Assembly: GCA_963791435.1 (NCBI GenBank)
Contig: CAWBSL010000001.1
Span: 1,553,817 to 1,617,816, forward strand
Direction of reading: 5' to 3'
Source: Candidatus Dormiibacterota bacterium
GTDB lineage: Bacteria > Chloroflexota > Dormibacteria > Aeolococcales > Aeolococcaceae
DNA: 64,000 bases
In this document: positions 3,906 through 63,392 of the stretch, piece by piece
Layout of the letters: each line of letters starts with the position of its first letter
Numbering within the stretch: the stretch's first letter is position 1
The notes under the pieces: generated by a model
Database searches by the model: none
The model's input: the letters and a program-made list of their open reading frames with translations, nothing else
What the model was told of the DNA's origin: nothing
Program-made: the position numbers and the translations under genes

Positions 3906-4991
3906 TCAAGCGACTGCCGCAGCGTTCGGCACCGCGTCGAGGCACTCGTCGATGATCGCGTGGACGAGCCGGTCGACGCGTTGCTCACCAAGCCGTGGTG
4001 CGCGCCGCGACAATCGTTCCACGATTTCGTGCTCGCGCACGGCGTCACGCTCGGGCAGCAACGCGGCCAGCTTGCGCTGCTGCACCGCTTCCACCGTCGC
4101 AGCACGGTACTCGAGCAGCCGGAACACCGCGTCGTCGATGGTATCGATCACGTCGCGACACTCCTCGACCGAATCCGCGACCGCAGGTCGAGTCATCGCG
4201 CACAGTGCCCGGGCGGTCTGCACGATCCGGCCGAGCACCTCTGGCGTGATGGCCTGCGCGGCGTCGCACAGCGATGCCGCAGGATCCGGATGACACTCGA
4301 TGAGCAGCGCGTCCGCGCCGGCGGCCAGGGCGGCCACGGCAAGCGACGGAACCCACGCGGCGTTGCCTGCGGCGTGGCTCGGATCCACCGCGATGGGGAG
4401 ATCGGTCATGTCGCGAAGCACCGCGATCGCGCTCACGTCCAGTGTGTTCCGCGTGGCAGTCTCGAACGTGCGGATACCGCGCTCGCACAGCACGACCTGG
4501 CGATCGCCCTCGGTGGTGACGTAGTCCGCGGCGGCAAGCCACTCCTCGTACGTGGCCGACATCCCGCGCTTGAGGATCACCGGCATGCCGCTCTGTCCTG
4601 CCGCTCGCAACAGCGGCGTGTTGTGCATCGACCGTGCACCGATCATCAGGGCGTCGACATGGTGGCGCAGCAGCTCGATGTCGTCGGCGTCGAGCGGCTC
4701 TGCGATGACCGGCAGGTCTGTGATGCGCCGTGCCTCGTCGAGCAGTGGCAGCCCGGAGATACCAAGGCCCTGGAACGAGCCGGGCCGGGTGCGAGGTTTC
4801 AGGACGCAACCGCGCAGCGCCGATGCACCAGCTCGTTGCGCCGCAACCGCGTGAGCGACGTAGCCATCCTCGACAGCGCACGGGCCGGCGATGACGGGCA
4901 CCGTGTCACCGCCGATCGCAACGGCGCCGATGCGCACCTGATGTGTGTCGTGTCGTCGGGTCGCGCTGATCAGCAGCGGCTCGATGGGCAC
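3906..4991 (-). CDS. 3-deoxy-7-phosphoheptulonate (DAHP) synthase, type I-beta, with C-terminal chorismate mutase (AroQ) domain
   Basis: GGAGG RBS then GTG at 4991 gives VPIEPLL...VIAGPCAVE...KRG...DPSHA (KDO8P/DAHP synthase fold). The last ~100 aa (CRDVIDTIDDAVFRLLEYRA...RE.EIVERL) resemble AroQ chorismate mutase. Confidence 0.8.
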   Translation of the reverse strand: MPIEPLLISATRRHDTHQVRIGAVAIGGDTVPVIAGPCAVEDGYVAHAVAAQRAGASALRGCVLKPRTRPGSFQGLGISGLPLLDEARRITDLPVIAEPLDADDIELLRHHVDALMIGARSMHNTPLLRAAGQSGMPVILKRGMSATYEEWLAAADYVTTEGDRQVVLCERGIRTFETATRNTLDVSAIAVLRDMTDLPIAVDPSHAAGNAAWVPSLAVAALAAGADALLIECHPDPAASLCDAAQAITPEVLGRIVQTARALCAMTRPAVADSVEECRDVIDTIDDAVFRLLEYRAATVEAVQQRKLAALLPERDAVREHEIVERLSRRAPRLGEQRVDRLVHAIIDECLDAVPNAAAVA

Positions 4992-17787: not shown

Positions 17788-18857
17788 CCGGCGAGCACCC
17801 GGCGCGATTCGCGCGCCATCTCCACGTCCTCGCGTGCCGTGACCACGACGACAGCAGGTGGGTGATCAGGAATCCCGATCACTGCGTCGCCGTCGGCGGC
17901 GAGCAGTGTCTCCGGAAGTCCGAACAAACCGAGCCGCGCGCACACGCGGCCACGGATCAAGGCCGAGTGCTCACCGACTCCGCCGGTGAACACGAGCGCA
18001 TCGAGCCGATCGAGCGATGCCGCGAGCCCGCCGATCACGCGGCACAGGACGTGCACGTACACGTCGAGCGCCAGCAGGCACGACGCATCACCGGCAGCAG
18101 CCTCGCGTTCCACCTCGCGCATGTCGGACTGGCCGCAGAGGCCCATGAGTTCACTGCCGTGTTCCAGTGAGCGGGTCATCGCACCGACCGAGACGCCGTG
18201 ATGTTCCTGGAGCCAGAGCAACGCGCCCGGGTCCACTGTCCCGCTCCGCGTCGCCATCACTGCGCCTTCGAGCGGCGTGAAGCCCATGCTCGTATCGACG
18301 CTGCGACCTTCGCGAACGGCGCATGCGGAGACTCCCGACCCGATGTGCGTGATCACGACCTGCAGCTGCTCGACCGGTCTGCCGAGCAGCTCCGCGCTGC
18401 GTCCGCTCGCCCACGCGTAGGACAGGCCGTGAAAGCCGTAGCGCCGCATGCCGAACTCTCGCCAGTGCGCGGGGACCGCATACGTTGTGGCGTAGGTGGG
18501 GATGCGCGCGTGGAACGAGGTGTCGAGACACACGACCTGTGGACGGTCGATCGACTTGCGGGCGACGTCGAGGAGCGCCAGCGCCGGCGGGAGATGCAGC
18601 GGAGCCAGCTCGATAGCCGCTTCGAGCTGCTCGCGGACCTCGTCATCGACGAGCGTTGCATGCCGGACGGCGGCTCCGCCATGCACGAGGCGGTGAGCGA
18701 CAGCGTCGATCTCGCCGGCTCGCGCTGCGAAATCGTCAAGCGTGCTGACGGGATCGGCGTCGCCGTCCACCTCCTGCGCCTCTTCGACTGTGTCGCTCTC
18801 GCCGATGACACTCAGCTTCAGGCTGCTCGAGCCTGCGTTGACCGCAAGAATGCGCAT
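17727..18857 (-). CDS. ackA: acetate kinase
   Basis: MRILAVNAGSSSLK N-terminus and GFHGLSY, ITHIGSG and TGGVGEHS motifs. Confidence 0.9.
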   Translation of the reverse strand: MRILAVNAGSSSLKLSVIGESDTVEEAQEVDGDADPVSTLDDFAARAGEIDAVAHRLVHGGAAVRHATLVDDEVREQLEAAIELAPLHLPPALALLDVARKSIDRPQVVCLDTSFHARIPTYATTYAVPAHWREFGMRRYGFHGLSYAWASGRSAELLGRPVEQLQVVITHIGSGVSACAVREGRSVDTSMGFTPLEGAVMATRSGTVDPGALLWLQEHHGVSVGAMTRSLEHGSELMGLCGQSDMREVEREAAAGDASCLLALDVYVHVLCRVIGGLAASLDRLDALVFTGGVGEHSALIRGRVCARLGLFGLPETLLAADGDAVIGIPDHPPAVVVVTAREDVEMARESRRVLAGYTATRVSSADAATDAIDST

Positions 18858-36973: not shown

Positions 36974-38074
36974 ATGGTTCAGGTAGCCGAGGTAGCCGTG
37001 CCCGTGCTCGAGGGCACCGACCACGTCGAGTTGTGGGTGGGGAATGCGCGCCAGGCCGCGTACCACTACCGCAAGGCCTTCGGATTCGACGTCATCGCGT
37101 ACGCCGGGCCGGAGACGGGCATCCGCGACCGGGCCAGCTACGTCCTCCAGCAGGGCAAGGTCCGCCTCGTGCTCACGGCGCCGCTGCAACCCGAGGGCGA
37201 CATCGCCGATCACCTGAGGCTTCACGGTGATGGCGTCCGCACGATCGCGCTCCGCGTCGCCGATGCCACCGCCGCATATGAGGCCGCCACCGCCCGTGGC
37301 GCGCGCAGCGTCGCCGAGCCGAGCAGGGCGGAGGACGAACACGGTGTCGTGACCTCGGCATCGATCGCCACGTTCGGGGACACCGTGCACACCTTCGTCG
37401 AGCGCGATGAGTATTCCGGTGTCTTCTGGCCGGGGTACCGCGCCGACAACCGCAGCGGCGGCGGTGTGGGGCTTCGCTTCATCGATCACACGGTGGGCAA
37501 CGTCGACACCGGCAAGATGGACGACTGGATCTCGTTCTATTCCGAGGTGTTCGGGTTCACCGTCTTCCAGGAATTCGACGAGAAGGACATCGCCACGCAG
37601 TACAGCGCGCTCCGCTCGAAGGTCGCGCGCGACCCGCGGACGCAGATCACGATGCCCATCAACGAGCCGCACGTCGGCCTCAAGAAGTCGCAGATCCAGG
37701 AATACCTCGACTACTACCGAGGCAGCGGCATTCAGCACATCGCGGTGCACACGGACGACATCGTCAGCACCGTCTCGGACATGCGCGATCGCGGGGTCGA
37801 ATTCCTCACCGCCCCGGGCGCCTACTACGACGCGCTGGGCGATCGCGCCGCCGGCATCAGCGAGGACCTCGACCGCCTGCGCTCCCTGAACATCCTCATC
37901 GACCGCGATGACGACGGCTACCTGCTGCAGATCTTCACGCGCCCAGTCGGGGACCGACCGACGCTCTTCTTCGAAGTGATCCAGCGCAAGGGCTGCAAAG
38001 GATTCGGCAAAGGAAATTTCAAAGCCCTGTTCGAGAGCATCGAGCGCGAGCAAGCTGAACGGGGCAACCTCTAG
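36974..38074 (+). CDS. hppD: 4-hydroxyphenylpyruvate dioxygenase
   Basis: Colinear with Streptomyces HppD, including C-terminal [46 protein letters not shown]. Divergent from paaA, with only ~19 bp between the chosen starts. Confidence 0.9.
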
Positions 38075-38115
38075 TCACTGATGTTCGCCGTCGAAGGTCG
38101 GCACAGAGGGTGTAA

Positions 38116-38234
38116 GGCGAGAGGGGACGGGCGGAACCCAGCGAATTTGGCCGCTCCCGAACGAGTGCGACAATCGGCTTGCGCGAGCGAGGGAGCGGAC
38201 AAGCTGAGCATGGTGCCGCCCGTCCCCTCTCGCC
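38116..38234. repeat. palindromic REP/MITE-like element, copy A (19-bp perfect terminal inverted repeat ggcgagaggggacgggcgg / ccgcccgtcccctctcgcc, inner IR ccgctccc/gggagcgg, core gcgacaatcggcttgcgcg)
   Basis: Seen directly in the sequence, lying between the convergent 3' ends of hppD and the Mop gene. Homologous core to copy B at 61509-61623. Confidence 0.7.
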
Positions 38235-38259: not shown

Positions 38260-38456
38260 CTACTCGACGGCGAGCATCACGTCGGACGCCTTCACGATCA
38301 CGATCACGTCGCTGCCGGGCTTGATGCCGAGCTCGTCCACGGCGTCCACGGTGATCGCGGCTGTCATTGACATGCCGTTCACCACGACCGACACGTTGGC
38401 CGTGGCGGCACCGCGCGTGATCTGTCCACCCGACCGGGGAGCTTGTTGCGCGCGCT
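38260..38456 (-). pseudogene. TOBE/Mop (molybdopterin-binding) single-domain protein, interrupted by 1-nt deletion-type frameshift near 38407-38420
   Basis: GGGGAAGG RBS, then the ATG at 38456 gives MKISARNKLPGRVD. It shifts into the frame giving QITRGAATANVSVVVNGMSMTAAITVDAVDELGIKPGSDVIVIVKASDVMLAVE. Restoring one C (gtggacCagatc) gives a canonical 68-aa Mop protein. Confidence 0.65.
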
Positions 38457-38474
38457 GATTTTCATTGCCTTCCC

Positions 38475-38486
38475 CCGTGATCTGGC
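38475..38486. promoter_or_regulatory. perfect 12-bp palindrome ggcgatatcgcc upstream of Mop gene / divergent from small ORF
   Basis: Seen in the sequence. Position is consistent with an operator. Confidence 0.25.
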
Positions 38487-38618
38487 GATATCGCCCCAAC
38501 TCTAGCCCACGTCAAGAAGATGTGGCCGCGCAGGATCGAACGCGTCGAACGGAGCAACCGATGTGCGATGATGTTCGGGCGGCGTGCTGCTTCGGCATGG
38601 CGGAAGGGGGTTTGGTAC

Positions 38619-61009: not shown

Positions 61010-61018
61010 GAGGGCACC

Positions 61019-61477
61019 ATGACCACGACCGTCACAAGCGTCGCCGAGTTGACCGCGTTGACCGGCAGGCATCTGGGCTACTCCGAGTGGCGCGAGATCA
61101 CGCAGGAGCAGGTCAACACCTTCGCCGACGCGACCGACGATCATCAATGGATTCACGTCGACGCGGCACGTGCGGCGTCCGGTCCTTTTGGAACGACGAT
61201 CGCGCACGGGTTCCTCACGCTGTCGCTGCTCGTGCCGATGTGGAGCGAGATCCTCCGCTACGACGGCGTGCGACTCGGCATCAACTATGGCCTGAACAGG
61301 GTGCGGTTTCCCTCACCTGTGCCAGTCGGTTCGAAGATCCGCGCTGGTGCCACGCTCGTCTCCGTTGAAACAGCGGCGGACGGTAGCCTGCAGGTCGTGG
61401 TCGACTTCGTTGTCGAGCGCGAGGGCGCGGACAAGCCGTGTTGCATCGCACAGGGTCTGTACCGCTTTTACGGCTGA
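61019..61477 (+). CDS. MaoC-family dehydratase (hotdog)
   Basis: FADATDDHQWIHVDAARAA.GPFGTTIAHGFLT. Confidence 0.8.
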   Translation: MTTTVTSVAELTALTGRHLGYSEWREITQEQVNTFADATDDHQWIHVDAARAASGPFGTTIAHGFLTLSLLVPMWSEILRYDGVRLGINYGLNRVRFPSPVPVGSKIRAGATLVSVETAADGSLQVVVDFVVEREGADKPCCIAQGLYRFYG

Positions 61478-61508
61478 TTCCTCAAAGAGGGCAGAGCGCG
61501 CCGCGGAT

Positions 61509-61623
61509 CAGGAGGGGTGACCCGCGCCAGCGCTCAGCTTGCCCGCTCCCTCCTTCGCGCAAGCAAATTGTCGCGCTCTCTCGGGAGCGGTCAAATTCGC
61601 CGTGGTGCGGGTCACCCCTCCTG
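61509..61623. repeat. palindromic REP/MITE-like element, copy B (17-bp perfect terminal inverted repeat caggaggggtgacccgc / gcgggtcacccctcctg, inner IR cccgctccc/gggagcgg, core cgcgcaagcaaattgtcgcgc)
   Basis: Between the convergent 3' ends of the MaoC gene and the acyl-CoA synthetase. The reverse complement of its interior aligns with copy A (cgcgcaagcNNattgtcgc conserved). Confidence 0.7.
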
Positions 61624-61649
61624 CTCCGCTGGGTCACCACGTGGTTAGA

Positions 61650-63335
<1,686 letters not shown>

Positions 63336-63392
63336 GCGCTCCTCATCTTCTGTGGGATCTGGCGCACGATTCTGACGGTCCTTAGGTGCGGT

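Follow-up and report, generated by a model that had tools for sequence, protein, structure and literature searches.

A family of ~120-nt intergenic hairpins with a covarying closing stem and a conserved core in Candidatus Dormibacterota

The ERIC or IRU sequences of enterobacteria are imperfect palindromes of ~120–130 nt that lie in transcribed intergenic regions and whose function is unclear, and they resemble the element described here. The Correia or NEMIS repeats of Neisseria, which are 100–150 nt long and are co-transcribed with their neighbours, are also similar to it in being intergenic and in forming hairpins; RNase III cleaves Correia elements, which also contain boxes that resemble promoters. 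TRIT, a motif of Mycobacterium tuberculosis from the RNIE study, is reportedly a conserved terminator-like hairpin that lies downstream of genes, often convergent ones, and has no good U-tract. REPINs are interspersed extragenic palindromes that form long hairpins in single-stranded DNA or mRNA and show compensatory changes in their stems (Bertels and Rainey 2011, PMC3116915). The family presented here comes from Candidatus Dormibacterota, uncultured bacteria that are abundant in peat, permafrost and desert soils and for which essentially no regulatory RNAs or repeat families have been described.

Two copies of the element lie in the window, by which we mean the whole 64-kb stretch of DNA that was analysed. 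Copy A (38116–38234, + strand, which is the family '+' orientation) is a complete hairpin element of 119 nt that scores 146.9 bits (E = 5e-31) with covariance model R1, and copy B (61509–61623, − strand) is the same element with a class-beta closing stem and scores 124.2 bits. The initial annotation had described a perfect 19-bp terminal repeat and a nested 8-bp repeat in copy A, and both were confirmed in the sequence: GGCGAGAGGGGACGGGCGG at 38116–38134 has its exact complement at 38216–38234, and CCGCTCCC at 38151–38158 faces GGGAGCGG at 38191–38198. The terminal repeat can be extended to 23 nt at 96% complementarity, so that the inverted-repeat search delimits a G-rich 5' arm (38116–38138) and a C-rich 3' arm (38212–38234) of a variable closing stem, with the conserved core between them (38139–38211, +). 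The arms of copy B are perfect over 17 nt and 93% complementary over 27 nt (61503–61529 with 61603–61629), and the two copies are the strongest inverted repeats of the whole window. The copies had been said to share a core in opposite orientation, and when copy A was compared with the reverse complement of copy B the ~73-nt cores were indeed ~90% identical; the arms differed, and each arm pair was perfect. Three core 20-mers occur exactly twice each in the window, once per copy, against ~0–0.1 expected from shuffles. Both strands of both copies fold with energies of −77 to −82 kcal/mol (z = −8.3 to −9.8), which none of 200 shuffles matched.

Both copies lie between convergent gene ends, as had also been claimed, with stop codons 25–41 nt from the hairpins. 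The neighbours of copy A are the gene for 4-hydroxyphenylpyruvate dioxygenase (HPPD; 36974–38074, +, with Pfam Glyoxalase and HPPD N-terminal domains), whose stop codon at 38072–38074 is 41 nt upstream on the sense side, and an ORF with a Pfam TOBE domain (stop-to-stop span 38260–38511, −), whose stop codon at 38260–38262 is 25 nt away on the 3' side. Copy B is flanked by a MaoC-like dehydratase gene (Pfam; 61010–61477, +, stop codon 61475–61477, ~30 nt away) and an AMP-binding acyl-CoA synthetase gene (Pfam; 61650–63392, −, stop codon 61650–61652, ~25 nt away), the latter on the same strand as the family orientation of copy B. No third copy was found within the window with the covariance model; a match at 18687–18775 (−, 15.6 bits, E = 0.86) lies within apparent coding sequence and was judged to be due to chance.

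To place these copies in a wider family, an 18-mer core seed was searched over one genome per species of bacteria and archaea and gave 74 matches, ~30 of which were chance matches inside genes of unrelated phyla. The full element accompanied 44 matches in 37 loci, all of them from Candidatus Dormibacterota metagenome-assembled genomes (MAGs) that contain several copies each; the Stordalen 'palsa' MAGs are among those with the element. The genome copies served to build a covariance model, which added 3 divergent copies in the same loci, bringing the genome copies beyond A and B to 47, in ~20 Dormibacterota MAGs, and a second seed, made from the apical helix and loop, found 64 additional copies in contigs of soil and peat metagenomes. 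What had been proposed from two copies is thus a real repeat family. Among true genome matches the element is restricted to the phylum Dormibacterota, and a core 20-mer gave no matches in viral contigs. By the count of the exact 18-mer seed, which misses about half of the variants, a MAG has 1–9 copies and a complete chromosome of 3.2 Mb has 1. Rfam 15 gave no matches in the window at the gathering threshold; at a permissive E-value the only models to appear were those of long plant and animal miRNA-precursor hairpins, at 35 bits against a threshold of 168, and these were dismissed. Our literature search found no description of repeats or RNA motifs of Dormibacterota, or of the element's own sequence. 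Judged by these searches, the hairpin family is undescribed, as the initial annotation had supposed it might be.

The element is a single long hairpin in which a closing stem is followed inwards by the conserved core of ~73 nt. The closing stem has 22 modelled pairs, or ~25 with its extension, and is constant in length and free in sequence; at least four unrelated classes of it occur, and copies A and B belong to two different ones. Within the core are a short helix (AUUUG with CAAG(C)U), an inner 8-bp helix (CCGCUCCC with GGGAGCGG) and a symmetric 6 x 6 internal loop in which GANNGA lies opposite GANNGA. In copy A the apical 6-bp helix consists of GTGCGA (38165–38170) and TTGCGC (38179–38184) around an 8-nt loop (38171–38178), and tandem G·A/A·G pairs are present at three sites (38143·38207 with 38144·38206, 38159·38190 with 38160·38189, and 38163·38186 with 38164·38185). 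An attempt to read the core as coding sequence was abandoned, since by-eye inspection found no ATG and no concentration of the variation on third positions.

Outside the stem, class-alpha copies, among which copy A is included, carry a conserved and unpaired sequence at either end, with GGCACAnnGGnTGTAA as the 5' flank and CCnnACCACnGnGCG as the 3' flank, and these motifs are confined to the neighbourhood of hairpins (17 of 18 matches for the 5' motif). The conserved element of copy A begins 16 nt before 38116, with GGCACAGAGGGTGTAA at 38100–38115 (+), an unpaired class-alpha flank conserved in most non-orthologous copies; the class-alpha 3' flank is absent from copy A. TGTAA precedes the base of the stem in class alpha, where classes beta to delta have other sequences, and the 3' flanks read CCnnACCAC (+ strand) and TTACAC (− strand). 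Mutual pairing of the conserved 5' and 3' flanks and an origin of these flanks as target-site duplications were both considered and rejected, because the flanks are direct rather than complementary and do not co-vary within a copy. An outer inverted repeat of GGACTACGnCACA occurs in the type-2 subset only. Many class-alpha copies are followed by a second short repeat module, ACCACnGnGCGAnnGTGACTGCGGAG (in the 3' flanks of L001, L047, L065 and others), which is sometimes in tandem and shares the words GACT(A/G)CGG and CACAGAG with the 5' flank in swapped order. At locus L059 a segment of the 5' flank is duplicated.

The differences between the arms had been interpreted as covariation that preserves a long stem, and this interpretation was upheld by compensated pairs in the genome set, in the metagenome set and in the output of RNAalifold. 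Over 43 genome copies, 19 of the 22 outer pairs show double changes and 94.9% of cells are paired, values that none of 500 shuffles reached, although such shuffle controls overstate significance because the copies are not phylogenetically independent. Among 60 distinct metagenome copies, double changes affect all 22 outer pairs and 6 of the 12 inner-helix pairs, and 96.7% of cells in the outer helix are paired; overall, the proportion is 93.2%, against 36–47% when the partner is slid by 1–3 columns. RNAalifold independently yielded the same fold, with compensation in 26 of 38 pairs. The covariation effect is nevertheless large, and it was reproduced in two samples drawn with different seeds; both the fold and its covariation are established.

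The inner helix itself exists in several forms. Two of these, CCGCUCCC/GGGAGCGG and CAGCGCCC/GGGCGCUG, are two compensated pairs apart, a third has a tandem G·A/A·G in place of two Watson-Crick pairs (25 of 60 copies), and a fourth has an extra compensated swap of C-G to G-C. The remaining three sites of tandem G·A/A·G persist in 56–60 of the 60 copies. Copy B and its orthologues at the same flanking gene ends (L078 and L098) differ by two compensated inner-helix pairs, one orthologue having a G·U intermediate. Variants with GGGAGCGACC (L018, L009 and L042) had been taken for an inverted 5' arm, a reading that was dropped when the larger set revealed tandem G·A replacing two Watson-Crick pairs.

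Mismatches are not tolerated equally on the two strands. On the family '+' strand of the metagenome copies, the outer stem has 42 G·U against 8 A·C and 25 G·A against 4 C·U, and in the genome set G·U exceeds A·C by 24 to 11; this asymmetry is established. The purine-purine platforms, moreover, become pyrimidine-pyrimidine mismatches on the opposite strand. Together, the mismatch asymmetry and the platforms indicate that one strand folds, the + strand in copy A and the − strand in copy B, and this points to an RNA or a single DNA strand rather than to a double-stranded protein site or a cruciform.

Comparison between species indicates that the family has been kept in place. At the X/Y junction, between the genes for a DUF6812 protein and a small membrane protein, the element is present across 13 species. 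A copy also sits at the HPPD/TOBE junction, both in the window and at six or more further loci (L014, L032, L049, L084, L114 and L132); the window is 83–87% identical over 5–8 kb to Dormibacterota loci with the element at this junction, which assigns it to the same phylum. Orthologous copies are 93% identical in the core and 86% in the stem, same-genome paralogues 91% and 80%, and random pairs 90% and 77%, the core being ~90% identical even across non-orthologous copies of different species. By comparison, the third codon or synonymous positions of a neighbouring, fully conserved protein are only 68% identical in the same species. No same-genome pair is identical, the closest being 95.8% identical and the median 88%, and there is weak homogenisation of copies within genomes. 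Because the core is conserved far above synonymous sites, the junctions are orthologous and paralogues are never identical, the family is old, vertically inherited and selected. On these comparisons the core is under purifying selection, which we regard as established, and the stem evolves by compensation in place.

The neighbouring DUF6812 protein (171 aa; L058 4981–5493, with orthologues in 12 other loci) is encoded beside the most widely conserved element site. Its last 60 residues are 100% identical in 9 of the 11 species compared, and in the remaining two their identity is 97%, which, set against the 68% identity at third positions, indicates an unusually strong constraint on this protein.

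Some loci also show signs of turnover at the level of DNA. A complete element is nested in a split and partly deleted older copy at ~6900–7260 of L022, the core and 3' arm are tandemly duplicated with a single 5' arm in common at 4987–5274 of L049, and head-to-head pairs of elements lie between the same two genes at L047, L052 and L068. The orientation of the element at one junction also varies between species. These orientation differences were considered as flipping of the interior through recombination between the arms, an idea that was rejected because the flanks move together with the interior and because some loci have two copies head to head. These same two facts suggest that differential retention accounts for most of the orientation differences, and the single-copy states at the X/Y junction look like alternative survivors of a two-copy state; the L006/L063 pair instead looks like an inversion of a whole cassette of ~190 nt. 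The spacer of ~150–210 nt in the head-to-head pairs (L047 2957–3168, L052 6059–6213 and L068 2842–2989) contains a short conserved stretch, TAACGAGCGCGGACG.

Copy A is itself bracketed by an additional inverted repeat of 16 nt. The left arm (38079–38094) is a relic of the TOBE gene 3' end just past the HPPD stop codon, and the right arm (38264–38279) lies inside the 3' end of the TOBE coding sequence. In L014 and L032, where the element has the opposite orientation at the HPPD/TOBE junction, the mirror image is found, with a relic of the HPPD end beside the TOBE stop codon, which suggests local inverted duplication or inversion around the palindrome. Such an outer bracketing repeat derived from a gene end is not family-wide, since only 3 of 43 copies exceed the control.

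In order to relate the family to its genes, context was assigned with a crude GC3-based gene filter. The copies are intergenic and adjoin stop codons, so that a position at gene 3' ends is established. A convergent context is frequent but not universal, being found for 24 of 37 genome copies and 17 of 39 metagenome copies (44%); a divergent context is found for 1 of 37 and 3 of 39 (8%), respectively. The neighbours have no common theme and are, according to Pfam, unrelated housekeeping genes, which include those for an aminotransferase, an L,D-transpeptidase, DNA ligase, a CHAP/LysM peptidase, a response regulator, a thiolase, a decarboxylase, a methyltransferase, HPPD, a TOBE-domain protein, MaoC dehydratase and acyl-CoA synthetase. 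The 3' side of the element faces an opposite-strand stop more often than the 5' side faces a same-strand stop (58 versus 32 strict calls), and the distance to the stop codon is tighter on the 3' side (median 27 versus 55 nt). With the opposite-strand stop closer to the 3' side, the mRNA of the nearest gene would carry the '−' version of the element. There is thus a conflict between strands, the G·U and G·A pattern favouring the '+' version and the gene context the '−' version.

The hairpin was initially proposed to act as a bidirectional terminator, and for a terminator of the canonical intrinsic type this was not borne out. Neither strand of copy A or copy B has a U-tract following the hairpin, so that termination of the classical intrinsic kind would not be expected, and a terminator scan gave no terminator-like site overlapping either copy. 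A search 5' of the element found no conserved promoter.

The best-supported reading of these results, to which we give a probability of roughly one half, is that the element is a structured RNA module at transcript ends. The active molecule is most probably RNA, judging from the one-sided mismatches and the covarying fold. The conflict between strands and the lack of a conserved promoter 5' of the element speak against this reading. The element would be an old, vertically inherited, Dormibacterota-specific module set just past the stop codons of ordinary genes. As the closing stem is free in sequence yet obliged to pair, it would place a very stable duplex at the end of the transcript. A possible role for this duplex could be to block 3' exonucleases; alternatively, it may hinder read-through between neighbouring and often converging genes, or may serve as a double-strand processing site. 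The stem would at the same time present the 73-nt core, which is constant in its sequence, in its G·A platforms of non-Watson-Crick type and in its apical loop of 8 nt, a pattern that is characteristic of sites to which a particular protein or RNA partner binds. Of the functions listed in the initial annotation, an mRNA stabiliser or a structured sRNA would be the best-fitting.

We can also suggest, very tentatively and while considering it unlikely in this specific form, that the core is a functional RNA module of a new class, which might be released from the closing duplex by an RNase III-type enzyme or might be bound in place by a dedicated Dormibacterota protein through the G·A platforms and apical loop. 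If so, a single post-transcriptional handle would be common to about a dozen unrelated genes in each genome, and the family would amount to a phylum-wide RNA regulon or a multi-copy small RNA.

A simpler explanation of the position at gene 3' ends, often convergent, is that the element is a generic hairpin, a U-tract-independent bidirectional terminator or exonuclease barrier whose core is kept by common descent or gene conversion and has no partner of its own. The near-equal folding of both strands and the tolerance of either orientation at one junction would fit such a hairpin, but the identity of ~90% between the cores of non-orthologous copies, against 68% at synonymous sites, would not, and neither would the weak homogenisation within genomes. 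Invariant unpaired G·A platforms and an invariant apical loop would also be superfluous in a simple hairpin, as would a strand-specific mismatch spectrum be unexpected, and we think it quite improbable that the hairpin alone is the whole explanation. It is also conceivable that the element bears a promoter, since on the family '+' strand the core contains a sigma-70-like TTGACC-16 nt-GACAAT that could fire through the 3' arm and produce an RNA antisense to the converging gene, whose stop codon the 3' side of the element faces at a tight distance. The scan match falls inside copy B (61567–61594, −) with 0.0 expected in shuffles, and the same position is occupied in all copies; the two hexamers are the sole A+T-rich, near-invariant patches of the core, and A2 and T6 of the −10 hexamer are retained in variant copies. 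However, copy B matches at no more than 9 of 12 positions, and the threshold of the scan is not reached in copy A. Type-IV copies, moreover, carry CCGG for TTTG with compensation on the other arm, suggesting that pairing and not a −35 box is preserved, and a transcript starting from the apical loop would lack the 5' arm and leave the strong covariation of the stem unexplained. A promoter is for us the least credible of these explanations and very unlikely to be the function of the element.

The strand-asymmetric mismatches that favour a structured RNA would also fit strand-specific recognition of single-stranded DNA, which is also a property of HUH transposase substrates, and the element might instead be non-autonomous mobile DNA of the REPIN/REP or MITE kind, a single-strand hairpin moved by a RAYT/IS200-type HUH transposase encoded elsewhere, with the core as recognition site. 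The element is interspersed and palindromic, and it is mosaic, as the nesting in L022, the tandem partial duplication in L049 and the head-to-head pairs in L047, L052 and L068 illustrate; its orientation at one junction differs among species, and a CTAC motif lies ~20 nt upstream in a subset of copies only. REPINs, too, form long hairpins with compensatory changes (PMC3116915). Against mobility, the X/Y orientation differences are explicable by differential retention from a two-copy state, exact-seed copies number only ~1–9 per MAG with one in the complete 3.2-Mb chromosome, orthologues cluster, and the core is conserved far beyond neutral sites. No transposase was present among 16 flanking gene products in a Pfam scan, nor were any copies in viral contigs. 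The REP/MITE label of the initial annotation is not supported, and further points against it are that the terminal arms are the most variable and least conserved part of the element, that there is no target-site duplication, that same-genome copies are never identical or nearly so, and that the junctions are orthologous. Mobile DNA is therefore an explanation that we hold to be unlikely, and a structured RNA at transcript ends is the reading that we favour.

As a structured motif the element is well supported, since over 100 copies are known and three helices covary, and it has a defined genomic grammar, following closely on stop codons and recurring at the same junctions from species to species. 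It could be used as an entry in an RNA family database and as a lineage marker in metagenomes, and it could be tested against peat and permafrost metatranscriptomes. We consider it a solid new motif, whose pattern of conservation is unusual and whose function can be tested, and not a new principle.

The likeness to REPINs extends to clusters, nested insertions and location at gene ends, which both have in common (PMC3116915). In REPINs, however, the terminal REPs are conserved and the spacer varies, whereas the Dormibacterota element has a variable terminal stem around a conserved centre. A REP is 20–40 nt long and occurs in tens to hundreds of copies, whereas this element has few copies by the exact-seed count and shows no sign of recent spread. 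The GTAG or CGTC tag that is the hallmark of REPs is absent from the stem base across stem classes alpha to delta, and there are no conserved terminal REP 16- to 25-mers, all 22 terminal pairs being covarying. Of the traits of MITEs, conserved terminal inverted repeats are absent, as the arms vary freely, and no target-site duplications were found in the flanks of 44 copies, where the CACAGAG-like motifs are conserved family sequence. Recent transposition, another MITE trait, is not indicated either, there being no near-identical copies and orthologous sites being occupied across species, with no empty sites seen among the loci compared. Intrinsic terminators are likewise G+C-rich hairpins tens of nucleotides past a stop codon, but they are 20–40 nt long with a U-tract, whereas the element is ~120 nt long without a U-tract and has a conserved interior sequence. 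Conserved structure backed by compensatory substitutions, by which structured non-coding RNAs are recognised, is present in the element.

Like the Dormibacterota element, ERIC sequences occur in either orientation, keep orthologous sites and have a low to moderate copy number. ERIC is conserved over its whole length and belongs to a different phylum, and we know of no sequence relationship between the two, nor of a freely varying closing stem or G·A-rich symmetric loops in ERIC. Correia elements differ in having conserved terminal inverted repeats of 26 bp, a TA target duplication and copies in the hundreds, features that the Dormibacterota element does not share. TRIT is similar in being lineage-specific, sequence-conserved and repeated in a high-G+C genome, and its hairpin is much shorter. 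Since the defining features of REPs and REPINs, MITEs and intrinsic terminators are mostly lacking, the element is filed under none of them. As far as its sequence and distribution allow us to judge, it is a new form among the interspersed intergenic palindromic or structured elements, and to our knowledge the first to be described in its phylum. The inverted conservation pattern, a free stem around a fixed G·A-rich core, separates it from REPs, REPINs and MITEs, and it suggests that palindromic intergenic repeats can be long-lived, selected elements of their host and not selfish DNA.
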